Below are positions 26,984 to 46,900 of a stretch of DNA of 64,000 bases, piece after piece. The position numbers and the translations under genes are program-made. Source of the DNA: a bacterium (lineage in GTDB: Bacteria > Zhuqueibacterota > Zhuqueibacteria > Residuimicrobiales > Krinioviventaceae); the NCBI GenBank assembly GCA_963675755.2, contig CAXXMD010000003.1, forward strand, positions 608,001 to 672,000, written 5' to 3'. Positions within the stretch are counted from its first letter, which is position 1. Each line of letters opens with the position of its first letter. Under the pieces are notes generated by a model that had not been told where the DNA came from, did no database searches, and worked only from the letters and a program-made list of their open reading frames with translations.

Positions 26984-28075
26984 TTATTTTATTTCACTAT
27001 CAGCTTGCTCAAATGTGACAACTTGGGATAAATATCGAGGCAAATCCGGATTAATATCTTTAGAAACTGCACGATAAAAACCAAGTAACTGCAAAAGAGG
27101 AACATAATGGAAAATATTAAACATGTCGGATGATTGATTCATACAGATACTGAAATCTGCACTTTGCTCAATAAATTGTGAATATTCACCATGCAAAACA
27201 AAACACTTACCACCTAAATCCTTGATCTCTTTAATCATAGGCTTTTCCCAGCCGGCTCCTGAACTGGAGATTAAAAATGTTATTAGTGAATTTTCTGAGA
27301 CGAAAGACCTTGGCCCATGACGATATTCCAAAGTATGAAAACTCGTAGAATTTGTAATGGACATTTCCAGCATTTTTAATGCAGCTTCATTAGCAATGCC
27401 ATAATAGGGCCCCTGACCCAAAAATATGAAATCATTAAATTGTGTGTTTGCAGCAACATTTTCTATAAACGATTCATGTGTTTTAACAAGTTTTTCACCA
27501 GACCCAACAACACTAAATAAAGATTCAAGTGTGGCATCATCATTTCTCAAAATTAAAGCGATGTATATTAAAGCTAATAACAACGTTGTAAATGAACTGG
27601 TCATGACGACACTCTTTTCCTTTTCAAATGGGAAAGGGATAGAATAGTCACACGCTTTTACAAGTGAAGAATTCTGATCGCATGATATTGCCAGGGTAGG
27701 AATATGAAATTCTTTACGAGATTTTTCTGCAACCAGAACAGTTTCAGTAGATTCACCAGATCTGGAAATGGGAACTATTAAATATTTTTTATTCTTCAAA
27801 AAGATAGAATCCGGATTAATGAGAATTTCTGATCCAGGTAAAGCATAACTAATAATACCAGTATATTTTGAAAATAAACTACTGGCGGTCTGAGCTATAT
27901 AATAAGAAGTGCCACATCCAACAAATATCCAAATACGATCTACAAAATCTTTTATTAACTGTTGATTTTTTTCTTTATCATATATAAGAGCTGTAAGTGC
28001 ATTTTTCCATATTTTTTGTTGCCTAGATATTTCAAGATAAGTTAAATATTCATGGGCTGATTGTTTCGCCATCAT
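26984..28075 (-). CDS. agaS: SIS-domain sugar-phosphate isomerase/deaminase, AgaS-like
   Basis: GCGTSYY, ISRSGESTE, SVVMTSSFT, EAALKMLEMS, EYRHGP, INPDLPRYLSQVV; context with KbaZ and AgaR. Confidence 0.75.
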   Translation of the reverse strand: MMAKQSAHEYLTYLEISRQQKIWKNALTALIYDKEKNQQLIKDFVDRIWIFVGCGTSYYIAQTASSLFSKYTGIISYALPGSEILINPDSIFLKNKKYLIVPISRSGESTETVLVAEKSRKEFHIPTLAISCDQNSSLVKACDYSIPFPFEKEKSVVMTSSFTTLLLALIYIALILRNDDATLESLFSVVGSGEKLVKTHESFIENVAANTQFNDFIFLGQGPYYGIANEAALKMLEMSITNSTSFHTLEYRHGPRSFVSENSLITFLISSSGAGWEKPMIKEIKDLGGKCFVLHGEYSQFIEQSADFSICMNQSSDMFNIFHYVPLLQLLGFYRAVSKDINPDLPRYLSQVVTFEQADSEIK

Positions 28076-28086
28076 CTACGTCTCCA

Positions 28087-28857
28087 TTATACAATTATTA
28101 CTTCAATACCCATTTCTTCAAGTTTTAACAAATACTCCTTGGGAATTCCACTATCGGTAATCAGTTTATGAATTTGATTTATTTGACAAATCACCCCTAA
28201 GCTGCGTTTTCCAAATTTAGAGGAATCAGTTACAACAACAACTTCACTTGCCGCATTTACCATGAGTTTACTTACTTTTGTTTCCAAAATGTTTGGAGTA
28301 GTCAAACCAACATTCAAATCAATACCATCAACGCCAAGGAATAATTTATCAGCTGCTACACTTGTAATTGCATCTTCTGCCAAGGGGCCAACCAGGGAAA
28401 AAGAATTTTCCCTTAAATTTCCTCCTGTAAGTATTATATCAATTTCACTTGCAGCTAATTCACTTGCAATGTTTACTGCATTTGTAATAATTGTGATATT
28501 TTTATAAAACTTTAAAAGACGGGCAATAAATGTTGTGGTTGAGCCAGAATCGAGAATAACTACATCTCCACTATCAATCATATCAACAGCTTTTTGAGCT
28601 ATATTACTTTTATCTTTTGCTCTGATCCTTTCCTTCTCTGTCAAAGCAAGATCAGTTACCGCTGACTGATTCAATACCGCACCGCCATGAACACGGGTAA
28701 GAATCCCTTTATTTTCCATAATTACGAGATCTTTTCGTATAGTAACGGGAGAAATCCCAAATTCCTCTGCTACATCATTTACGATAAGCCGTTTATTGGT
28801 TACCAAAATCTCTTGAAGCTTTCTTCTTCTTTCTTCATTTAACATAATAACTTCCAT
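28087..28857 (-). CDS. agaR: DeoR/GlpR family transcriptional repressor, AgaR-like
   Basis: SPVTIRKDL HTH, RVHGGA, LDSGSTT, ITNAVNIA, DSSKFG. Confidence 0.85.
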   Translation of the reverse strand: MEVIMLNEERRRKLQEILVTNKRLIVNDVAEEFGISPVTIRKDLVIMENKGILTRVHGGAVLNQSAVTDLALTEKERIRAKDKSNIAQKAVDMIDSGDVVILDSGSTTTFIARLLKFYKNITIITNAVNIASELAASEIDIILTGGNLRENSFSLVGPLAEDAITSVAADKLFLGVDGIDLNVGLTTPNILETKVSKLMVNAASEVVVVTDSSKFGKRSLGVICQINQIHKLITDSGIPKEYLLKLEEMGIEVIIV

Positions 28858-28870
28858 TTTGGTTTTTTTT

Positions 28871-28970
28871 CTTTCATTTTAGATCAATCTCTTTTTCATG
28901 GTAATAATTATTTTACAATAATGCAAGTCTTTTTTCGTTTTGGATCATTTTATTTCATATTGTTTCGTTT
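28871..28970 (-). promoter_or_regulatory. sigma70-type promoter (TTGCAT-N17-TACCAT, 28926-28898) flanked by 10-bp-periodic TTTCRTTT boxes, candidate AgaR operators
   Basis: Plus strand 28931-28970 reads tttttcgttt/tggatcattt/tatttcatat/tgtttcgttt, with ctttcatttt at 28871. This resembles known AgaR TTTC direct-repeat sites. Confidence 0.6.
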
Positions 28971-29331
28971 AAATTGAATAATTTTTTGATATGTTTCGTA
29001 TCGGAACACGTTTAAATACTCAGAATAGAAAATTTTAGAACCCAAAATGCTCCTATCCCCATTGATTCTCATCAAATCACAATCAAGTTAACTTGTATTT
29101 TTATTAGATAGTCACCAAATAGAGAGCACCGTAGTAAACTGATTACGTTCTCTAATTTCTTAGTACTTTTCTCACAGGATGTGAAAGGCTCGGGATCAGC
29201 ATCGCCAAAACATCTGAATTTTTCCGGGGATTACCATGAAGAACGAAATTCAATTCGCTTGTCCATCGCAGATGGACCCGGCAGGCAGGATGCGACTTTC
29301 AAAATGGTGTAAAGAGGTATAATCAGAGTTT

Positions 29332-29497
29332 TGACGGAGACAATCTCCCCCATGATCAATTTTACAAAATCAATTCAATCCTGTAATCTTTTAATCCAAT
29401 AAATCTTAATTCAAACAAAAAGGCGCCGCCCATTACATGGTTAGCAGTGGCGGCGCTTTAAGAAGAATACCTGGTCTACAGGCTCAGGTTACGAACT
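29332..29497. repeat. Composite inter-cassette repeat, copy R1 (partial)
   Basis: Contains tgacggaga-caatctc, 9-nt AATCC tandem units, a gcgccgcc...ggcggcgc hairpin and REP-like cctggtctacaggctcaggttacg; aligns with R2-R4. Confidence 0.85.
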
Positions 29498-29501
29498 GAT
29501 G

Positions 29502-29735
29502 TTATACAAAAGTAAATAACAAAATAAAAATCACAGTAAAAATAAACATAACATTGAACAACAATTTAAAAAATTTCTCGCTGGTAAAAAAATAATTTAA
29601 AGATTTTGGATTTGATCTTTTGTGTGTTCTTGATAATTTTGATAAAATTTGAAACCCATTCAATTTATAAAAAAATATCCAAAGCCATAACCAAATAAAC
29701 ATATAAAAAATAATATCTTTAAAATCAAATTCCAT
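29502..29735 (-). CDS. Small two-TM membrane protein, putative immunity protein
   Basis: 77 aa, very AT-rich, AGGA RBS, directly downstream of a decayed RHS toxin fragment. Confidence 0.55.
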   Translation of the reverse strand: MEFDFKDIIFYMFIWLWLWIFFYKLNGFQILSKLSRTHKRSNPKSLNYFFTSEKFFKLLFNVMFIFTVIFILLFTFV

Positions 29736-29749
29736 TAGATTTTATCCTA

Positions 29750-30098
29750 TTAATTATTTCCCCATTTTTCTATTTCATTATCTTTTCTAACAATTGTTTT
29801 CTCAGTATTATCTTCCTTTTTAAACTTTTTAAAAAGATCAATAACTCCTTATTTCAAATCTATTGTTTAAGTTTTAAATGCGGAAAATCCAAGGTCAGCC
29901 CCCAAAGAAACTCCAAATTTAATCCCAATTACATCCCTCCCATCCGGATCAACCAGTATCAACGGGTTATTCATCGTATAATTTTATACAGACTCAACCC
30001 CGGATATTTTCCCTACAACGGATCAACGCAAATAAACCGCCCCACAACCGGATCATGACTAAAACATCACCGTATTGGATCATAACCAAAATAACGCA
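29750..30098 (-). pseudogene. Decayed orphan RHS core/toxin-tip fragment
   Basis: HDPVVGRFICVDPL*GKYPGLSLY-(+2 frameshift)-NYTMNNPLILVDPDG-RDVIGIKFGVSLGADLGFSAFKT*. TAG at 30013-30015; DNA similar to 33565-33728. Confidence 0.85.
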
Positions 30099-30116
30099 TA
30101 AAAACAAATGTTTTAA

Positions 30117-30362
30117 TCAATCGTGTTTTTATCCGTGAAGATCAGTGTGAATCCGTGGCTAAATACAGAAGCAAAAAGCTTTACCGCAGTGATCGCAGAG
30201 TATTCGCAATGAACGCGGAGAGGTAAAATTTAACCATGACAGAGACAATCTCTGTCACGATCGTTTTTAAAACATCAATTCAATCTTATAATCCTTTAAT
30301 CCCATAAATCATAATTCAGACAAAAAAACGCCGGTTACTGCAGGGTTAGCAGTGTGACGACG
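30117..30362. repeat. Composite inter-cassette repeat, copy R2
   Basis: tcaatcgtgtttttatccgtg..., tgacagaga-caa-tctctgtca hairpin, AATCC tandem and actgc..gcagt hairpin. The central part is replaced by cgcag/cgcgg ~10-mers. Confidence 0.85.
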
Positions 30363-30515
30363 TAATGATATAAATAATTAACATTCAATTTCACACTATT
30401 GTGGCAATGCGAAAGAAATCCCACGGATAGATTTGAACTACTAACCAATTCAACATTCAATACAATAATAAATTTCAATCAACACTTGAAATTCTAACAA
30501 ATCATTGTAATAACA

Positions 30516-30749
30516 TTAAAATATCTCAACTATTCCATACAAAATGGATATAAAACTTACAAAATACAATACAATTAATAGTGTTTTTTGATATGATATT
30601 ATTCCCTTCTTTGTTTGCATCTCCTCCTTATTGAAAAAAATTTTACCGCTATCATATTCTCGCTCCATATGACGAAGATTTGATAAAACTCTAAAATTTG
30701 CAAAAAACACTAAAATTCCAGTTATTAATAATATCATTTCATAACTCAT
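30516..30749 (-). CDS. Small two-TM membrane protein, putative orphan immunity protein
   Basis: 77 aa, strong GGAGGTG RBS, occupies the same array position as the other immunity-like genes. Confidence 0.6.
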   Translation of the reverse strand: MSYEMILLITGILVFFANFRVLSNLRHMEREYDSGKIFFNKEEMQTKKGIISYQKTLLIVLYFVSFISILYGIVEIF

Positions 30750-30767
30750 TAATATTCACCTCCAGTC

Positions 30768-30790
30768 CGTAGCCTGGGCCTGTCGCCCAG
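30768..30790 (+). repeat. GTAG-type REP-like hairpin, left boundary of inserted segment
   Basis: cGTAG-CCTGGG-cctgtcg-CCCAG. Confidence 0.7.
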
Positions 30791-30850
30791 AATTTGAACT
30801 GACGAATATCGAACGACCCATAAAATTTGATGTTTGGCAAGTATTCAATT

Positions 30851-31966
30851 TTATTCATTCTTTTTCCTGATTTCAATTCCTTTTAAATCTGAAATTCGAG
30901 CAATAAAACCCCAACCGAACTTGTCCTCGGATATTTCCATTATCAATTCATTTTCCCCCTCAAGAAAAAGCACATCTATTGTCTTGTCATTTTCTAAAAC
31001 ATATCCTCTATCCCTGTAATCACCTGATTCTACAAAACTATTATCACCTTCAAACAACATTTCAGAATTGAGGCAGACCCTGACTTTATCACTATATCCA
31101 AAATACAACTTTTTACTCTGTGTTTTTTTTGAATTGATGAATACTTTGGCTAAAACAGTGTTTTTTGTATTGGTTTTTACAAAATGCTTGTTCAAATTTA
31201 CTAAATAGTCTTCTGCATCTATTAAATGCCATTTATTGATACTTTTATTTAATACCTGAATATCTTTATTTTGGTTATAGTTATCATAGGGCTCTGAAAT
31301 TAGCCAGCTTGATATATATGACTCGTCTTTTATATTGGATTCATGATGCTTTTCGGAACCTGAAAGGGGATCATATTTTGTTACTTTTAGGTTTTTAAAA
31401 TTCGCAGGGTGATAACTAAAAACGCCTACTGCCCCTGATGTAATATCATGTTTCAACTTTACTGACAAAGAAGGATTTTGATTGTTGTTTAAATAAACAA
31501 TTGCAATATCATCAATTACCTCTAATTTTACATGAAACCATTCTTGCACCGGGATATCTGCTACAGCTTGATAGTCTTTCCCGTTATATAGCTGCCAGGT
31601 TGCAGAGCTGTTAAAAATGGGATCATATTGTATTGCATCCCATTTTCCACTGGTATGAGGCTGGAAATAAATACATTCATAATTAACTAATTCCCCTATT
31701 CGAAATGCAAGCCCTAAATAAGCCTTTTGAGTTGGTGAGTATAAATCACACTCTATTACACCATTTTCAAACTCCAGGCCATCAAGATATGCAATTCCCA
31801 CACCTTCTGAAATTAAAGTAATAAATCCGGAATCAGATTCTTTTACTGACGCAGAACCTAATGTTTTCCAATTATCAGACAAAAAATCAATGTTCTCAAC
31901 GTTCTGCTGTGCAATACATAAATTTGAAATGATGACAAATAATATGAACAAATTTGCTCTATTCAT
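30851..31966 (-). CDS. Secreted DUF1080/GH16-like beta-sandwich protein with a C-terminal beta domain
   Basis: Signal peptide from ATG 31966 (AGAAAGGA RBS); FENGVIECD, GLAFR, WFHVKLEV, VYLN, GAVG, FKNL pattern. Confidence 0.6.
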   Translation of the reverse strand: MNRANLFILFVIISNLCIAQQNVENIDFLSDNWKTLGSASVKESDSGFITLISEGVGIAYLDGLEFENGVIECDLYSPTQKAYLGLAFRIGELVNYECIYFQPHTSGKWDAIQYDPIFNSSATWQLYNGKDYQAVADIPVQEWFHVKLEVIDDIAIVYLNNNQNPSLSVKLKHDITSGAVGVFSYHPANFKNLKVTKYDPLSGSEKHHESNIKDESYISSWLISEPYDNYNQNKDIQVLNKSINKWHLIDAEDYLVNLNKHFVKTNTKNTVLAKVFINSKKTQSKKLYFGYSDKVRVCLNSEMLFEGDNSFVESGDYRDRGYVLENDKTIDVLFLEGENELIMEISEDKFGWGFIARISDLKGIEIRKKNE

Positions 31967-32167
31967 TATAATCCTTTCTGTAACGATGCAGATTCCCGTT
32001 TCACAAAATATATTAAGGCACATTTGTCTAAAGGGGCACTCCCCATTATTCAGACAATTTTAGGTACTTTTGGTGAAAGACCAAAGTAGCCAATTAATTT
32101 TCCTCGGTCAAGTCATTTTAAATAATTTTGCGCCAGAGTTTGGTCCGCTTTAAAAGCCAGAAAGAAT

Positions 32168-32191
32168 CCTGGGGCAGGGGTCCTAGGCTAC
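32168..32191 (-). repeat. GTAG-type REP-like hairpin, right boundary of inserted segment
   Basis: Minus strand GTAG-CCTAGG-acccctgc-CCCAGG, inverted relative to 30768-30790. Confidence 0.7.
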
Positions 32192-32192
32192 A

Positions 32193-32509
32193 TACTCAAT
32201 CGTGTTTTTATCCGTGAGGATCTGTGTGAATCCGTGGCCGAATTGACAGATAGAAAATAGGCCACGGATCTCCACAGATCAGCACGGATTGGAATTGCTA
32301 TATTGGGGATTGTTGTGCCTTGGTAAGCAAGGAGACGTTCGTGACGGAGATGATCTCCGTCACGATCAAATTCATAACATCAATTCAATCCTATAATCCT
32401 TAAATCCTACAAATCTTAATTCAGACAAAAATGCGACGGTCACTGCATGGGTAGCAGTGAGACGGCGCTTAAAGATGAATACCTGGGCCACAGGTCCAGG
32501 CTACGAACT
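32193..32509. repeat. Composite inter-cassette repeat, copy R3 (most complete)
   Basis: 32193-32429 is nearly identical to 33729-33964; 32430-32509 matches the ends of R1 and R2 and includes the REP-like 32482-32505. Confidence 0.92.
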
Positions 32510-32522
32510 ACGAAATGATCAT

Positions 32523-32912
32523 TTACTTTGAGAGTGACATAATAAAAAGTGCAATGGTTAATATAAAATAGCCCCAGATTAAAATATTACCCAAGTCATG
32601 ATATTTATTATCCCATTCATCATATTCTTTTATCATTATATCAAGATTTTTATTCGGTTTTAACAATAAAAAATGAATAATTATTATAACAAAATATCCA
32701 ATTAGTTGATGTATTAATGATGAATTTGCAATAGTATTCAATATAGAATAACTAGCTATTTTATTCAATATCCGTATTATACTTATAATATTGTATGATG
32801 CGAAAACACTCAACAATACAATTGCACCAATATCTGCAACATCATCATCATTATAACTCCATAGCATCAAGTTATAAAGTTTTATATAAAGAATTTTATA
32901 AATCTTGAACAT
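32523..32912 (-). CDS. Three-TM putative immunity protein
   Basis: Begins 11 nt after the RHS-CT stop; hydrophobic and AT-rich. Confidence 0.7.
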   Translation of the reverse strand: MFKIYKILYIKLYNLMLWSYNDDDVADIGAIVLLSVFASYNIISIIRILNKIASYSILNTIANSSLIHQLIGYFVIIIIHFLLLKPNKNLDIMIKEYDEWDNKYHDLGNILIWGYFILTIALFIMSLSK

Positions 32913-32923
32913 TTCTAACCTTC

Positions 32924-33685
32924 TTAATAATATTTAAACATTCGGGATACTCCAATACGTGCGGCATTACTCGCATCTACAGGAAATGTTTCAAGTTTTG
33001 GTCGTACTATCAAATATGAAATCGTTAAGGGGACACCAACTATAGGGCTTGACAAAGTTGATACTGTAGAAATTCCAATATCTAACACACCAAGCCCAAT
33101 ACCATAATAATCATTGTTATTGTAACTTGTAGATATTTGATAGCCACCACTAATTAAACCGAAACTATATCCAACAAGACCAACACCTTTTAAAAATCTT
33201 ATCGAAGGATAATACTTAAAATCTGTAATTTGAGTTAAATTAAGCTCATGAGCCGACATTAATACTCCACCATTGATGCCTATGAAATTACTTATAGCTC
33301 CAGTGATTTCCCCCGCATCCGGGAAATCACGGCAAATACTTTGATAATAAACTGATTCTGCTGTCAAACCTAGCGAAGGTCCGGTCTTATTATTATAAAG
33401 ACCAGGATTATTACTATTTCTACTAGAATAACTATCTAACGATTGTGTCATTGCATCTAAAATATATATATAATTCCAATTTACTGGTCTATCTGCTTCA
33501 ACTATAATATCATCAGTTTCATAAAATTGATAATCTCCTATTTGTTTTGTCTCCAACCCGTTTGGGTCTATCAGTCTTAACGGGTTATTCATCGTATAAT
33601 TATACGGACTCAACCCCGGATACTTCATTGCCAACGGATCAACGCTGATAAACGGCCCCACTACCGGATCATTACTAAACATCAT
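32924..33685 (-). CDS. Orphan RHS repeat-associated core plus C-terminal toxin domain (membrane-active type)
   Basis: DPVVGPFISVDPLAMKYPGLSPYNYTMNNPLRLIDPNG is the RHS core end with the DPxG cleavage motif; Gly-rich hydrophobic C-terminal helices; no RHS body and no clear RBS. Confidence 0.88.
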   Translation of the reverse strand: MMFSNDPVVGPFISVDPLAMKYPGLSPYNYTMNNPLRLIDPNGLETKQIGDYQFYETDDIIVEADRPVNWNYIYILDAMTQSLDSYSSRNSNNPGLYNNKTGPSLGLTAESVYYQSICRDFPDAGEITGAISNFIGINGGVLMSAHELNLTQITDFKYYPSIRFLKGVGLVGYSFGLISGGYQISTSYNNNDYYGIGLGVLDIGISTVSTLSSPIVGVPLTISYLIVRPKLETFPVDASNAARIGVSRMFKYY

Positions 33686-33728
33686 CGTATTGCATCATAA
33701 CCAAAATAACGCAAAAAAGCAAACATTT

Positions 33729-33964
33729 TACTCAATCGTGTTTTTATCCGTGAGGATCTGTGTAAATCCGTGGCCGAATTGACAGATAGAAAATAGGCCA
33801 CTGATCTCCACAGATCAGCACGGATTGGAATCGCTATATTGGGGATTGTAGTGTCTTGGTAAGCAAGGAGACGATCGTGACGAGATGATCTCCGTCACGA
33901 TCAAATTCATAACATCAATTCAATCCTATCATCCTTTAATCCTACAAATCATAATTCTGACAAA
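33729..33964. repeat. Composite inter-cassette repeat, copy R4
   Basis: Inverted triple 10-mers (atccgtgagg atctgtgtaa atccgtggcc ... ggccactgat ctccacagat cagcacggat), near-palindrome gatcgtgacgagatgatctccgtcacgatc, AATCC tandem. Confidence 0.92.
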
Positions 33965-34190
33965 GAAAACATCAAAACTTTGGGGAATACAGTAAACCAA
34001 CACTCGAGCAAAAATCTTTTCATATACTCTTGCATTCTGTTGCCCAATATAGACCAGGTATGCTCAATTCATCAAGAAATTTCAATTATCAATTGTTTTT
34101 TCAAGATGTATCCCTTATTTTTAAATAACCTGAATCTGAAATTTCCAAGTACAGTTGAATATATAAAATTTAAAAAATAAGGAGTTACAA

Positions 34191-35828
34191 TTGAGTCAAA
34201 ATAAACTTGCCGGCATGCCTGCTCCACGGGAATTACTGGTCAACATTCCCGGACTTGTTTCTGCTTATTATACATATGAACCCGACATTGAAAATCCCTC
34301 AAACCTGGTCTCCTTTGGCACATCAGGACACCGTGGTTCTTCATTAAAAAAAACCTTTACAGAATCGCATATCCTTGCTGTTTCACAAGCCATTTGTGAA
34401 TACAGAAATCAAAATAATATAAAGGGCCCCATTTTCATCGGAAAGGATACCCACGCACTGTCTGAGGCAGCCTTTGCAACAGCGCTTCAGGTTTTTGCGG
34501 CAAATGACCTGCAAGTAATCATTCAAAAAGGTCTTGGATTCACACCCACCCCCGTCATCTCTCATGCTATTCTAAATTTCAACAAGGGCAGAACCTCAGG
34601 TCTGGCGGATGGGGTTGTTATAACACCCTCGCACAATCCACCAGAAGATGGAGGATTCAAATACAATCCACCTAATGGCGGCCCTGCAGACACGGCAACT
34701 ACAAGTGTAATAGAAAAACGCGCCAACGAAATCCTGAAAAAAGGTTTAAAAGATGTTAAACGCATGCTCTACGAAAAAGCGCTAAAAGCAGAAAATGTAC
34801 AACATCTTGATCTCGTACATCCCTATGTAAATGATCTGGCAAACATCGTTGATATGGAAGCCATCCAATCTGCCGGATTAAAAATTGGTGTTGATCCCAT
34901 GGGTGGTGCCGGTATTGCCTATTGGGAACCGATTGCTGAGAAATACAAGCTCAATATAGAAAACGTGAATCCCTATGTAGATCCAACCTTTTCTTTTATG
35001 ACATTGGACAAAGATGGAAAAATCCGTATGGATTGTTCATCGCCCTATGCTATGGCAGGTCTGATAAAACTGAAAGAAAAGTTCGACATTGCATTTGGTA
35101 ATGACCCGGATTATGACAGACACGGCATTGTAACCCAAAGCAGTGGATTGATGAACCCCAATCACTATCTTGCGGTTGCCATTTGGTACTTGTTCCAAAA
35201 TCGTCCGGAATGGCGGCAGGATGCTGCAATTGGTAAAACTCTGGTTTCCAGTTCAATGCTTGACCGTGTGGCAGCTCATCTTGAGCGGAAAATTTCCGAA
35301 GTACCGGTCGGTTTCAAATGGTTTGTTGATGGACTCATTGATGGATCTTATGGCTTTGGTGGTGAAGAAAGCGCGGGGGCTTCTTTTCTACGTAAGAATG
35401 GAACAACATGGACAACAGATAAAGACGGTATTATAATGGACCTGTTAGCTGCCGAAATTTTAGCCAAAACCGAACGGGATCCCGGCGAGATCTACCAGTC
35501 CCTTGAAGCTCAATTCGGATCACCGGTTTATGAACGCATAGACGCGCCGGCAACCAAAGCACAAAAAGAAATATTGAAAAACCTGACCCCGGACCAGCTT
35601 AAAGCCAGCGAATTTGCGGGTGAACCCATTTTGCAAAAATTAACTCATGCACCCGGCAATAACGCTGCAATTGGCGGATTAAAAGTCGTTACCGAAAATG
35701 GCTGGTTTGCAGCTCGTCCTTCCGGAACAGAAGAAATTTATAAAATATATGCCGAAAGTTTCAAAGGTAAAGCGCATTTAGAAAAAATTCAGAATGAAGC
35801 AAAATCCCTTGTTGCGTCTGTTTTTTAG
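34191..35828 (+). CDS. pgm: Phosphoglucomutase (alpha-D-glucose phosphate-specific)
   Basis: [14 protein letters not shown] phosphoserine, DPDYDRH metal loop, GEESAG, RPSGTE; TTG start after AAGGAG. Confidence 0.97.
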
Positions 35829-35862
35829 AGATAAATAAATGAACCCATTAAATACATTATAA

Positions 35863-35889
35863 AAAGGCCCTTTTTTGAAAAGGGCCTTT
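35863..35889 (+). terminator. Intrinsic terminator after pgm
   Basis: AAAGGCCCTTTT-ttg-AAAAGGGCCTTT. Confidence 0.8.
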
Positions 35890-36234
35890 CCCCTACAAGA
35901 ATACAACCCAAATATAAAACCAAAAAATTTAATTTAAGCATTATAGCATAAGCTATTTGGATTTAAAATTCTTTTTGCTTGCTTTTCTTCTATATAAATT
36001 GTTAATTAGGATATTATTATAAAAATTTTATTATATTCAAATATGTATGGTAATTTGAGTATAATTTTTTAAATAAAATAAATTTATTTGCACTATGGTA
36101 AAGAAATATTAATTGTATATTTTTTTGCGGCCTTTCTCCAGCCTTTATTTATATTATCCTAACATTTGTTAATAAATATTGTATAAAGAAAAATTAAAAA
36201 ATCATTAATAATATTCTGTACATTTAAAAATTTT

Positions 36235-36248
36235 TATAAACGTTTATA
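36235..36248. promoter_or_regulatory. Candidate LacI-family operator (autoregulatory)
   Basis: Perfect palindrome TATAAACGTTTATA with central CG, upstream of the LacI gene. Confidence 0.55.
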
Positions 36249-36384
36249 TGTAACTTTTTTGAAACAGACATTGATTTAAAAAACACAAAAAGTTAATGAG
36301 CAACTAGAAAAAATTTGTAAATCCCGATTCTTTTAAATAGATATTTATAGTTTACTGGTTATCAATTGGTGAATAAATTTTATT

Positions 36385-37401
36385 ATGCAAAACAAAAGCA
36401 CAATTAAAGATATTGCAAAACAACTTGGGGTTTCAACCTCACTTGTATCATTTGTTCTCAATGGTAAAAGTAAAGAAAAAAGAATTAGCGATGAAATGAC
36501 AGCCAAAGTCTTAAAAGTTGCTAAAAAAATGAATTACACTCCAAATTATCTTGCAAAAAGTTTAAGACATGGCAAGTCAAGAACTTTAGGACTCATAGTA
36601 GCTGACATATCAAATCCATTTTTTGCAAACCTGACCCGACATATCGAAATTGAAGCATTTAAATATAACTATCATGTTATTTTGGGCAACTCGGATGAGA
36701 ATTTATCAAAATTTTCCAACCAATTAAAAGTTTTAAAAAATGGCCAGGTCGATGGATTTATTATTACGCCGCCTCATGGAAGTGAAAAGGAAATAATTGA
36801 ATTACAAGAACAAAACATACCTTTTGTTATTATAGACAGAATATTTAACATACCTAATACACATTCGGTAATGATTGATAATCATAAAGCAAGTTATAAA
36901 GCCACAGAACGCCTGTTAGCTAATAATAGAAAAAATATTGCCCTTATTAATATAATCCCAGAATTGATTCATATGAAGCAACGAGAAGATGGTTTTCTTG
37001 ATGCTTTAAAAGACAATGGAATTCCTATAAACCACTCTATTATCAAACATCTTGATTTCAGCCATCAAAAAGATGTTTTAATGGAAGCGATCAAAGATGT
37101 TATTCAAAAACAAGCCGATGCAATTCTATTTACCACCAATAAACTCGGGCTTATGGGTGTAGAATGTCTGAAAGAATTGAATGTAGATATTTCCAACAAA
37201 ATGTCAGTTATCAGTTATGATGATCCTATAGCATTCAAGGTATCATATACACCAATCAGCGCAATTGTACAGCCCATTGAGCAAATGAGTAAAGATGCGG
37301 TTCGAATATTAATGAATACAATTGAAAACAAGTACAATGGTGATATAATAGAAAATATTGAACTGGATGTTGATTTTATTTTCAGGGCATCATGTAAATA
37401 A
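36385..37401 (+). CDS. LacI family transcriptional regulator
   Basis: TIKDIAKQLGVSTSLVSFVLNG HTH, YTPNYLAKSL, periplasmic-binding-fold C-terminal domain. Confidence 0.95.
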   Translation: MQNKSTIKDIAKQLGVSTSLVSFVLNGKSKEKRISDEMTAKVLKVAKKMNYTPNYLAKSLRHGKSRTLGLIVADISNPFFANLTRHIEIEAFKYNYHVILGNSDENLSKFSNQLKVLKNGQVDGFIITPPHGSEKEIIELQEQNIPFVIIDRIFNIPNTHSVMIDNHKASYKATERLLANNRKNIALINIIPELIHMKQREDGFLDALKDNGIPINHSIIKHLDFSHQKDVLMEAIKDVIQKQADAILFTTNKLGLMGVECLKELNVDISNKMSVISYDDPIAFKVSYTPISAIVQPIEQMSKDAVRILMNTIENKYNGDIIENIELDVDFIFRASCK

Positions 37402-43959: not shown

Positions 43960-46900
43960 ATGAGGATAAAACTTTTTATTCTTTGTTTTGGATTATTATT
44001 TCTTAGCATAACCGACCTCTATGCTCAGGGGAAAACTTATGACGGTCCTCAAGACAGCGCAGGTGATCCATATCTGGAGCGCGAAGGTGTAATGTCAGGT
44101 AACCGTGTTCAATTGAATTTTAAAAACAATACGGAATTGGGTGGTTATCCCGTTGCTACAACCGCGTGGTGGCCAAAAGGTGTTGGTGGAAACAAAATGC
44201 ATGACAATATGGGTCTGTTAATAAGCTCAGCTGTCTGCATTACCCAAGATTCAATTCCGGTCACTGATCCTGATGAAATCAAAGCACTGGAAGCTCAGGG
44301 TCTGATTGATACTCTATTTTATTGCCAAACCAATTATAGAGAAGAAATGGACCGTGACCCTACCGGTCAGGTAGAATGGGGTTTTCATCCGGTTCCTGGC
44401 TATATGAACAATGCCAGTGAAACTCCGGCATTAAGCAATGATCCGGACTCATGGCCAACACACGGCTGGCTTTATACAGGACGCCAAACGCATTGGATGG
44501 GCGAATGGGATGGCCGTTTTGGTCGTGGCCAAATTAAAGCAGATTTAGAAGCATATTTTGTTGCCAACGATGCTCAGGATCTCGAATACCTGGGAGATGA
44601 CGACAAAGTTAAATATTATCCACGCAAAGATGTTAAAATTGGTGATATTGATGGCAGTGTGACTGTGCAAAAAGGAGAGCCCTGGGGTGGTCTGGGAATC
44701 AGAGTAAAACAAAGAGGTTTTCAGTGGAATAATCCCATGGCCCAGGACTGTATCTTTTGGGAATATACTGTTGCAAATATTTCAGACTATGATCTACCCA
44801 ATATGGCATTTGGTTACTGGCTTGACAATAATATTGGTGGTGAAAACACGGGTGAAGATGGTAATTTCAATAAAGTTATGAACTTGTCATATTGTTGGGA
44901 CACTGATGGAGTTGGTTCAGGTGGATATAAAACCGGAACCGCGGGTTATGCTTATCTTGAAAGTCCTGGTATTTTTAATGACTTTATAGATAATGATCAA
45001 GATGGTTTGGTCGATGAAGAACGAGATAATGATGCCGGTATGTTTATCGGCAAGTATGACGGTATAACAAATTTAGATGATTTTCTGTCTTTTTATGGCA
45101 AAACAGAAGAAGACCTGGTAGAGCATTGGTCAGGTGACGAAGATCAGGATTGGTCAGATGGTGAAGATACCAATAATGACGGAATTTATCAGGCAGATGA
45201 ATATGCCGGTGACGATATAGGTCTCGACGGTGTTTCTCCCAGTGAATTAAATTATACCGGTCCCGATGCTGATGGTACTGAATGTAATCACAAACCGGAC
45301 ATTGGAGAAGGTTACGCGGAACCAAACTTTGGCTGGACGGATGTAACAGAAACAGACATGTTGGGTTTAACAACATTGTTATTTTACGAAGCGCCTATAC
45401 ATACAGCGCCTTATGTAAACTGGTTCAGAAATGATGAATCTGTATATAGAAACATGACCTGTGGAATTCTGGAAGCCGGTGCCACACACATTGACAACCT
45501 GTTCCAGCTCTTTTCTACTGCGATCTTTCCGCTTTATCGTGGTCAAACTGAATTTATCTCAATTTCAGAACTACATACTTATGATGACCTTGCAGGTTTG
45601 ACTTCTGCTGAACACTCTGCTCCGGCACTCTTTACATTAAAAAATGTAGTTCAGCTTATATATGAAAAAGACTATCGTTTTGCTCAACCACCAGAAATGC
45701 CCAAACTGACTGCTGTTGCCGGTGATGGTTTTGTTCAATTAATGTGGGATGACCGTTCAGACCGGTTGACAAAGGAATCCTTTCTCAATGGTGAAAATGA
45801 CTTTGAAGGCTATAAAGTGTATCGTTCCACAGATCCGGATATGCTTGATCCTATGGTAATAACAGATGGTTATGGATCTGCAGCTTTTTCAAAACCTATT
45901 TTTCAATGCGATCTTAAAAACGAGTATGAAGGTTTTGCCACTTGGGGATTTTTGAATGGAACAGCTTATTATCTGGGTGACAACTCTGGTATAGCGTATT
46001 CATTTAAAGACGAAACCGTTCAAAATGGACGTACCTATTATTATGCCCTGGTAGCTTACGACTATGGTATTGAACCTGACAAACTTAAAGGTACCTCCCT
46101 CATATCTCAGGATGAAAATGCCGGTATCTCACCTTCTGAAAACAATGCTATTATTAGAAAAGATGATTCTGAAAACATAGAATTCATCGGAGCAAATGTG
46201 GCAATTGTTACCCCCGGTTCTGATGCTGCGGGAGAGGAAGTGACGGTTGATTTTCAAGTTGATGATAATGGTTCTATTGGTGGTGGTAAAATTGTTCCCA
46301 AAGTTATTGATATCAATTCATTAAAAGATGACCACGTCTATAAAATAAAATTCTCTTATAATCAGATTGATTCTGCTTACAGATACCATGCAGGTTATGG
46401 ATATAAATACACTGCCAATGGCTTAAAAGTCTATGATGTAACCGAAGATAACAGACTAGTTCTTTCAGACCTTTTAGGAAGTGGCGGCCCTGCCAACATG
46501 ACTTCCATTATTGAAAAGGACGACTATTACCACCTGGCTTCTTCCGAGCTCATGTGGACGGATATTTTTGATGGAATACAACTGGGCGTAAAAATGGATG
46601 CTGCATTGTCAGAACTCGATGTGGCAAACACAGGATGGATGCCTGGTGAATCTCCCATGAACATCCGCTATATTGATAACCTGGCAATGGAATGCTATAG
46701 CTGGGATTATAACATTGTCTTTTCCGATCAACCCCTGCATAAAACACAAATTACTCAGAGATATGCGGCTTATCTGGACGATGAAAATGGAAACAGATTA
46801 AATAAAGATGAATTGCTGGTTGAAGAAGAGTTTAACTTTAGAATTGAATGCCTGGATTTTGCCGATACTACCGGAGCACCTCGTGTTTTAGATATGCTGG

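Follow-up and report, generated by a model that had tools for sequence, protein, structure and literature searches.

What assembled a row of Rhs toxin tips and small immunity-type genes in a genome whose assembly holds no gene for an Rhs shell, and does any dedicated enzyme move them? The question is raised by a stretch of 64,000 nucleotides (the window; G000:C3:608001-672000) of the bacterial genome GCA_963675755.2 (G000; 6.48 Mb in 3 contigs, 98% complete), in which four copies of a structured repeat (R1 to R4) bound three co-oriented cassettes on the minus strand, from a DeoR-family regulator to the phosphoglucomutase gene pgm. A previous reading, made from the letters of the window only (the sequence-only reading), had proposed an integron-like or acquired-immunity-like capture system, with the hairpin-rich spacer as capture site and an enzyme acting in trans. 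Our analysis, which included a sister species (G001), leads elsewhere: the array is a variant of the known Rhs displacement type, and the integron-like reading is not supported. We consider it probable (about 0.68) that the array belongs to the Rhs C-terminal-displacement type, with homology on both cassette flanks, that it grew by homologous recombination and that it is kept as an immunity reservoir. Coordinates are those of the window unless a contig or locus is named, and the array is read on the minus strand.

Organisation of the cassettes

The repeats delimit three cassettes, as had been claimed. A repeat search returned a 126-nt unit in four copies (at 29332, 30237, 32342 and 33877), with 68-83% identity to the reference copy. 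BLASTN of R3 (32193-32520, minus strand) against the whole of G000 recovered R4 (95.4% over 237 nt, E 3e-104), R1 (81% over 168 nt, E 2e-38) and R2 (82.5% over 126 nt, E 2e-30). The near-identity of R3 and R4, put at about 236 bp by the sequence-only reading, therefore holds, and a 154-nt block common to the two (32193-32346 and 33729-33882) is 96% identical in the repeat search. Open reading frames (ORFs) and sequence also agree with the proposed order, namely R4, Rhs core with C-terminal domain (CT), a gene with three transmembrane segments, R3, an insertion, a gene with two such segments, R2, a decayed core with CT, a second two-segment gene, and R1 (Table 1). In the last of these genes (29502-29735), one hydrophobic segment is above threshold and a second is plausible by eye. 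The contents of the cassettes, described as unrelated, resemble each other, and those of other arrays, in the Rhs core alone. The G+C content of the array is 28-36%, as compared to 39-40% for the genome.

The core was recognised by a TIGR03696 match at 33554-33670 (profile positions 39-76), with 32.7 bits against a cut-off of 32.5. The core fragment ends in a motif of the DPxGL type ('...LIDPNGLE' in cassette 1 and the decayed '...LVDPDGRD' in cassette 3), directly before a variable C-terminal domain. The tips are mutually unrelated, a small ORF follows each of them, and they lie in a trough of low G+C. When the 253-aa ORF of cassette 1 was used in an exhaustive protein search, 6913 matches were obtained at E <=0.001, nearly all on core residues 6-47. 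Over the CT, which starts at about residue 48, only a handful of short proteins could be aligned, weakly and poorly (22-30% identity), and a search for longer proteins bearing it gave 3 matches, each confined to the core part. Among the best 150 of the 6913 relatives of the core fragment, most are proteins of 55-500 aa with the core motif near the N-terminus, which makes free-standing 'core + CT' ORFs look very abundant in public genomes and metagenomes. The CT of cassette 1 may be membrane-active, judging from its Gly-rich hydrophobic stretch, its membrane immunity candidate and matches in the Atlas to pore-forming/colicin-like and glycine-zipper clusters, which with scores of 0.79-0.81 (below 0.9) serve as a lead only.

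Each core is preceded by a conserved leader. The regions that follow R2 and R4 on the minus strand share two blocks (88% over 103 nt and 84% over 80 nt), and the 'RYFGYDxIR*' stretch found there had been taken for a junction already degenerate in both copies. The 'RYFGYD' stretch is real shared DNA (88% over 103 nt), but it is not a degenerate junction. In a paralogue at the second array locus of G000 (L001) the leader runs in frame, ...VILVMMQYSVASAGQYYFHIHDHLGNTR..., into a complete core, with one frameshift before FGARYHDPVVGRF, and the pgm cassette of G001 reads MIQYSAVFVKSRTCGFGARYHDP in a single frame. Comparison with the intact paralogue gives ...VILVMMQY..., the start of a stand-alone core ORF, as the true frame at the leader, so that 'RYFGYD' is an out-of-frame reading of the leader and start codon. 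In the window copies MMQY is followed by stops, reading resumes at (S)NDPVVG, and an internal core deletion of about 70 codons is common to both. A longer core is kept in a second class of G001 cassettes and in a 360-aa ORF at L001, with a further module (M5) ahead of it. The 3' part of M5 translates to ...STRRLSNSDMTRDYTPFGE, the N-terminal part of the core; M5 gave no DNA-level match to the shell genes of G001. R4 and R2 are each followed by the 45-nt leader and an Rhs core fragment, and R1 is followed by M5. M5 was also considered as a structured RNA and rejected, as RNAalifold on 7 copies gave -14 kcal/mol and 1 of 24 pairs compensatory.

The spacer is a mosaic of a terminator-like hairpin and dispersed repeats

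Alignment of the four copies and mapping of genome-wide matches along R3 showed that the spacer is a mosaic, in which a terminator hairpin peculiar to the cassettes (T) is combined with four small families of repeats (M1 to M4). On the minus strand of R3, M1 consists of GTAG and a hairpin CCTGG...CCAGG. T is a G+C-rich hairpin followed by a U-run, resembling an intrinsic terminator (fold z-score -2.1 to -2.7). M2 is 45 nt long and contains three GGATT repeats, with a sharp 5' end between TTG and TCTGAATTA. M3 is a perfect palindrome, GATCGTGACGGAGAT-n-ATCTCCGTCACGATC (z -4.6), and M4 is a hairpin of about 95 nt made of ATCCGTG-type words (z -8.3). Rfam searches (E up to 1), run on window 27000-37000 and on the array in G001, returned only chance microRNA and small-RNA matches far below gathering scores, and no spacer module is a known Rfam RNA family.

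The modules differ from the composite in their distribution. M3 has 67 strict stem matches in G000 (28 with a short loop and 39 with a long loop), and all but one of the short-loop copies (27/28) lie outside ORFs of at least 100 aa. M1 is present in 8 copies at up to 5 substitutions. Both are extragenic, multi-copy palindromes, as is characteristic of repetitive extragenic palindromes (REPs), and M1 carries the GTAG tag of the classical family. M2 occurs at 20 sites, frequently as an inverted doublet, and half of the sites outside cassette loci (7/14) are found no more than 40 nt downstream from a co-oriented ORF. Dispersed copies of M2 and M3 adjoin gltX, folD, an amino-acid permease, MscS and sulfatases, and the palindromes of M1, M3 and M4 also occur singly next to housekeeping genes and around genes for REP-associated tyrosine transposases (RAYTs). 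By contrast, T-bearing copies of at least 70 nt number 8 in G000: 4 in the window, 3 at L001 (C2:1962-1968 kb) and 1 at L003 (C2:1358.9 kb). Seven of them sit in the two loci, the window and L001, that hold all 3 core matches of the genome, and the L003 copy comes after a 142-aa membrane ORF beside a RAYT. In G001, all 9 long copies are within arrays bearing core matches. T and M2 stand at every cassette 3' end of G000 (6/6). Only the T-containing composite is cassette-linked, and the single modules are generic dispersed repeats. This goes part of the way towards the first refutation named by the sequence-only reading, a repeat scattered genome-wide with no enrichment next to rhs-CT/immunity genes.

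Homology of the cassette shared between species ends in the core and at the end of M2

The sister species has 11 core matches, and arrays with the same composite are found at C1:5148-5160 kb (5 long copies), at C1:2229-2234 kb (3) and after an RHS-repeat locus (1). On the pgm side, DNA synteny between the two genomes covers window positions 44762 to 33919 and breaks off at the latter, where M2 of R4 has its inner end; past this point G001 carries a different cassette, X, preceded by M2, half of M3 and the leader. At the opposite end, the G001 sequence leading up to tRNA-Asp corresponds to G000 C3:578361-582676 with 94.6% identity; after tRNA-Asp, G000 has a 22.5-kb island, a 31.8-kb carbohydrate cluster that is not at that place in G001, and a truncated M5. 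Synteny on both sides therefore places the array in the same interval, tRNA-Asp to pgm, in both species. The array region, between tRNA-Val/tRNA-Asp and pgm, is variable.

Cassette X is shared by the C2 locus of G000 and the pgm locus of G001 at 96.4% over 861 nt and 95.7% over 509 nt, whereas the flanking core genome reaches 90-94.6%. On the 5' side the homology of cassette X stops within the Rhs core, which is full in G000 and deleted in G001, and on the 3' side it stops at the end of M2; the sequence-only reading had expected breakpoints in the repeat rather than in the core, and cassette X has one in each. The G001 copy is interrupted, its halves overlap by about 5 nt, and they abut two DDE_Tnp_1 insertion sequence (IS) copies at C1:363.7 kb and C1:5160.3 kb, which points to IS insertion and then a chromosome-scale inversion that split the pgm-linked array. 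These IS copies (L014 11752-12723 and L011 17365-18336) are about 4.8 Mb apart. Compared with the empty sites of G001, the C2 locus of G000 contains two insertions. Block A comprises cassette X and an IS3 element, and block B comprises CotH, a lone Gmx_para_CXXCG immunity-type gene, the 360-aa core+CT ORF, a 342-aa ORF, M1 and T. Both abut an inverted M2 doublet. For block B the empty site has an intact doublet, and the junction coincides exactly with the outer M2 end; for block A the empty site has only a degenerate M2-like piece. Elsewhere in G000, C3:2629287-2630356 has 82.6% DNA identity to a 350-aa ORF that is the immunity candidate of an array cassette in G001 (L013 10676-11728) and may be another lone orphan immunity gene.

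Within the window, a 237-nt M2-M3-M4 segment is duplicated at 95% on either side of cassette 1, and the other pairs among 17 spacer copies are 58-89% identical, with no clustering by genome. A flanking direct duplication of the crossover segment is the footprint that single-crossover insertion of a circle or unequal crossover would leave. Together with the interspecies homology limits at M2 ends, the R3/R4 duplication agrees with the earlier view of the repeat as a recombination substrate.

Since the spacer is made of a terminator and genome-wide palindromic repeats, the most likely way for the array to have grown is plain homologous recombination. Each unit runs from leader and start through a (partly deleted) core ending in DPxGL, an unrelated CT and a small candidate immunity ORF to T and M2, so that conserved DNA stands on both sides of each variable CT/immunity segment. 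The REP-type modules M1, M3 and M4 would have settled in the spacer as passengers and been copied along; REPs are described as lying mainly downstream of coding regions (PMC3733652). RecA-type recombination, with the 5' homology supplied by core and leader and the 3' homology by T-M2(-M3), would add, duplicate and swap units and move them to other M2 sites. It could proceed by unequal crossing-over or Campbell-type insertion of circles, and no dedicated recombinase would be needed. For rhs tips, homologous recombination with circular intermediates was proposed by Jackson et al. 2009 (PMC2935791), and the present reading extends that model. T would end the transcript of each unit, and the leader may supply a putative promoter. 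If the array has a function in a genome without a shell, it would be that of an orphan-immunity reservoir, analogous in role to acquired interbacterial defence (AID) and recombinase-associated AID (rAID) loci (10.1101/471110, PMC12247911).

The same comparisons bear on a passive history, in which the array would be an old, decaying tandem duplication of an rhs 3' region, with the repeat a passenger and the small ORFs not maintained. Divergence between spacer copies is 11-42%, with no grouping by genome, as would be the case if most units were old; cores are deleted, frameshifted or interrupted; and arrays have received IS elements and a foreign gene. However, the first pgm cassette differs between the species despite orthologous flanks, cassette X is at different loci with 96% identity, R3/R4 is a recent duplication, and the three small ORFs of the window have stayed open at a G+C content of about 30%, unlike the decaying toxin parts (two of the three are decayed or replaced). 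For this reason, we regard a purely passive relic as unlikely.

RAYT genes and the possibility of repeat-directed capture

The search for a RAYT suggested by the sequence-only reading was fruitful: two REP-flanked RAYT genes are present in G000. Nearly half of the long-loop M3 copies (17/39) cluster in C3:339-344 kb around a 177-aa RAYT ORF (C3:340671-341204; Y1_Tnp PF01797, 37.9 bits; HFH and YIHYNP motifs), which has arrays of M3-stem hairpins on both sides. In G000:C3:339300-342350 these flanking hairpins read CGTGACGGAG-14 nt-CTCCGTCACG, with a spacing of about 80 nt. A second RAYT-like ORF (L003:7645-8193; PF01797, 23.1 bits; HIH and YIHYNP motifs) lies between an inverted M1 pair. M1 and M3 each flank a RAYT gene of predicted activity, as cognate REPs do. 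The genome has 4 PF01797 matches, all outside the window.

An inverted M1 pair also brackets the insertion in cassette 2, which begins exactly at the expected leader start. Its 390-aa ORF has a signal-like start and a weak match, below cut-off, of the 3-keto-disaccharide-hydrolase type; the gene was not found in G001 with the query used, and its closest relatives elsewhere do not exceed 35% identity. The same inverted GTAG-REP pair, with its inner flanks, encloses a RAYT at L003 7590-8404 and the unrelated 390-aa gene at window 30764-32191, and it looks as if the content between the pair had been exchanged.

A RAYT (an HUH enzyme) or another trans factor might be imagined to cut the spacer hairpins or the M2 boundary and to move whole cassettes. 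Such capture would fit three observations: two spacer modules are the cognate REPs of two RAYT genes, the 390-aa gene lies inside the same M1 pair and inner flanks that enclose a RAYT elsewhere, and cassette blocks or homology limits fall exactly at M2 boundaries in 4 comparisons. RAYTs, however, are known to act on REPs or REPINs (paired REPs) of about 100 nt and not on kilobase cassettes. No enzyme gene is associated with M2, and T and M2 are contiguous in every cassette, as expected of crossover within M2 homology. Several spacers lack M3 and M4, which therefore cannot be required sites. We consider this process quite improbable. It is likewise distinctly unlikely that the 45-nt M2, alone or with the RAYT-linked REPs, is the true landing and exit site for cassettes ending in T-M2, served at about 20 M2 or doublet sites by a trans-acting hairpin- or repeat-directed enzyme. 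If this were true, the array would represent a recombinase-less 'REPIN-anchored' cassette system, distinct from integrons and rAID. The link of REPs and RAYTs to cassette boundaries is a testable lead and not an established mechanism.

Recombinases and Rhs shell genes

No integrase, Y1 transposase or transposase domain was found among the window ORFs scanned with Pfam. G000 has 4 matches to PF00589 (C2:549682, C2:2254394, C3:604557 and C3:3502359), none of them in the window or adjoining either array, and no tyrosine recombinase adjoins the G001 array loci whose ORFs were scanned. The earlier statement that no full rhs, integrase or transposase lies in the window is in line with these results, as all PF00589 and PF01797 matches are outside. 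The arrays of G001 do hold IS elements (IS3, Mutator-family and DDE_Tnp_1). The nearest integrase (C3:604068-605129), about 32 kb from the array, forms the right end of a 22.5-kb tRNA-Asp island (C3:582677-605216, just left of the window; L010 8068-9259), which has perfect 49-nt direct repeats of the 3' end of tRNA-Asp at its borders. In G001 the tRNA-Asp is uninterrupted, and a GIY-YIG gene with several partial att-like repeats around it comes next. No array of short low-G+C genes comes after any of the remaining three tyrosine recombinases in G000.

These results weigh on the proposal that a distant tyrosine recombinase recombines attC-like spacer hairpins and stacks promoterless cassettes. 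As described, rAID-1 is defined by a XerD-like recombinase at the 5' side, directly upstream and sharing at least 44% identity with the B. fragilis reference, with at least 2 co-directional short genes of G+C <=41% and conserved intergenic motifs (10.1101/471110). The array resembles it in its short, co-oriented, low-G+C genes and conserved structured intergenic sequences. In a comparison that covered gene orientation and G+C (<=41%), both agree with the description, but a recombinase adjoins neither G000 array nor the scanned G001 array loci, and for want of this defining element the array is not regarded as a member of rAID-1. The nearest integrase is tied to the tRNA-Asp island, with its own 49-nt att repeats. 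An adjacent intI-type recombinase, an attI site and a cassette promoter are lacking, and the palindromes are dispersed REPs instead of attC-like elements specific to cassette 3' ends. Moreover, the cassettes end in a terminator-like hairpin and begin with their own leader, unlike the promoterless cassettes of integrons. Capture by an integrase in trans is therefore highly improbable.

The sequence-only reading had called the cassettes orphans, and this was confirmed. PF05593 (RHS repeat) has 0 matches in the G000 assembly, tblastn with the 1619-aa and 1704-aa RHS-repeat ORFs of G001 gave 0 matches in G000, and all 3 core matches lie in frames of at most 379 aa. In G000 the array does not trail a full-length rhs gene with matching core, and the cassettes are true orphans. 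The RHS-repeat ORFs of G001 (1619 and 1704 aa; L016 4026-11706 and L017 4410-11088) end before the core and are followed on the 3' side by an unrelated ORF and then by a separate core+CT ORF; both have a signal-peptide-like start. Both loci are directly downstream of genes resembling type IV pilus and type II secretion system genes (PilC-like T2SSF, pilin and prepilin peptidase).

Limits of the homologous-recombination reading

Several points count against growth of the array by homologous recombination. No recombination event was directly observed. Two public runs, from one sample of one study, cover the locus as contigs that break at the repeats, and the five contig 'joints' that link equivalent R2/R3/R4 positions have sides of only 26-43 nt. 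With 45-330 nt at 75-95% identity, the homology available is short for RecA to recombine efficiently. Repeated junctions at exact M2 ends are also expected from a site-directed process, and together with the foreign gene bracketed by REPs they leave some room for a repeat-directed mechanism. Expression of the immunity ORFs, termination at T and promoter activity of the leader are all putative. The CT of cassette 1 matched no Pfam family, and the toxin-immunity pair is a candidate one. With the assembly 98% complete in 3 contigs, a shell gene in the missing sequence is conceivable. Among 41 genomes, T-bearing matches of at least 85 nt are in G000 and G001 only, with single modules of at most 84 nt in 3 others. 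A 26-nt leader pattern had G001 as sole carrier among species-representative genomes and was absent from JGI metagenome contigs. The system is known in two genomes, and its gain and loss rest on one species pair.

Features of the window and neighbouring genes

The features of the array and its flanks are collected in Table 1. At about 29129 the M5 relic gives way to a carbohydrate-utilisation segment not present in G001. This 31.8-kb cluster (G000:C3:605300-608000 and window 1-28857) encodes glycoside hydrolases, polysaccharide lyases and a TonB-dependent receptor, together with tagatose-pathway genes (SIS, PfkB, GatZ/KbaZ, EamA and DeoR). It has no syntenic counterpart in G001, and no att repeat was found at its right end. 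Sorting domains of the type IX secretion system and a PorV match are present among the scanned ORFs of G000, and these alone are the grounds for describing the genome as Bacteroidota-like.

Table 1. Positions of the array features and flanking genes in the window, in minus-strand order from the array head, followed by the flanks.
Feature	Position	Strand	Details
R4, array-head repeat	33729..34010	-	reaches ~34010; no M1; degenerate T; M2 33913-33957; M3 palindrome 33873-33902; M4 hairpin arms 33746-33825
Conserved leader and ATGATG start of stand-alone Rhs core ORF	33686..33730	-	repeat search, paralogue comparison
Cassette 1 toxin part, 253-aa ORF: truncated Rhs core (...IDPNGLE) and CT	32924..33685	-	
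Cassette 1 candidate immunity gene, 129 aa, three hydrophobic segments	32523..32912	-	
R3, most complete copy	32193..32520	-	reaches 32520; M1 32480-32504; T ~32425-32472; M2 32378-32425; M3 32339-32368; M4 32210-32289
Insertion in place of cassette 2 toxin part	30764..32191	-	M1-like REP 32168-32191, ORF, inverted M1 REP 30764-30790
390-aa secreted lectin-like ORF (predicted) inside cassette 2 insertion	30851-32023	-	
Cassette 2 remnant, 77-aa ORF, two hydrophobic segments, candidate orphan immunity gene	30516..30749	-	
R2	30117..30370	-	no M1; T; M2 30273-30320; M3 30237-30266; only half of M4, 30117-30169
Cassette 3 leader, decayed Rhs core and short CT remnant	29870..30116	-	in-frame stops, frameshift
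Cassette 3 small hydrophobic ORF, 77 aa, candidate orphan immunity gene	29502..29735	-	
R1	29332..29510	-	extends to ~29129 via truncated M5; M1 29468-29492; T; M2 29369-29413; degenerate M3
M5 relic: leader and rhs-derived sequence of a further long-core cassette	29129..29331	-	ends ~29129
Left flank: DeoR-family regulator, last gene of 31.8-kb carbohydrate cluster	28087..28857	-	
Right flank: phosphoglucomutase (pgm)	34191..35828	+	protein 97% identical to G001 orthologue

Comparison with known systems

A bacterium without its own Rhs shell gene can still keep and reshuffle Rhs tip and immunity modules, and the locus fits acquired interbacterial defence beyond the gut Bacteroidales, where it was described. 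As a conserved core and leader stand on the 5' side and a terminator and dispersed repeat on the 3' side, homologous recombination could swap modules and seed new arrays at dispersed copies of the repeat. A full-text literature search found no description of Rhs tip arrays punctuated by REP mosaics, which is weak evidence of absence.

Integrons of the class 1 type are built of co-oriented cassettes with imperfect palindromes between them, and have intI, attI and the promoter Pc. The array shares the co-oriented cassettes and the palindromes, but it has no intI, attI or Pc, its palindromes are not cassette-specific, and its cassettes have their own terminators and leaders. The likeness to systems of REPs, REPINs or bacterial interspersed mosaic elements with a RAYT lies in the GTAG-tagged palindrome M1 and the short perfect palindrome M3, both extragenic and multi-copy and each flanking a single-copy RAYT, and in mosaic clusters downstream of genes. 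It differs in that a fixed mosaic is propagated here as part of the cassette unit and that one REP pair encloses a 1.4-kb foreign gene.

With rAID-1 (10.1101/471110, PMC12247911), the array has in common co-oriented, short, low-G+C orphan immunity-type genes, conserved intergenic sequences and a likely defensive role, whereas it has no adjacent XerD-like recombinase and keeps toxin fragments with the Rhs core. The work on Rhs C-terminal displacement arrays (PMC2935791) describes a core fragment with an unrelated low-G+C tip and a downstream small gene, in one orientation, with some degenerate fragments and with tips shared between species at high identity, all of which is also seen here. Compared with that description, the present array has no parent rhs upstream or in the assembly, a conserved leader and start codon open each unit, REP elements lie in the spacer, and a conserved 3' flank (T and M2) gives homology on both sides of the variable part.

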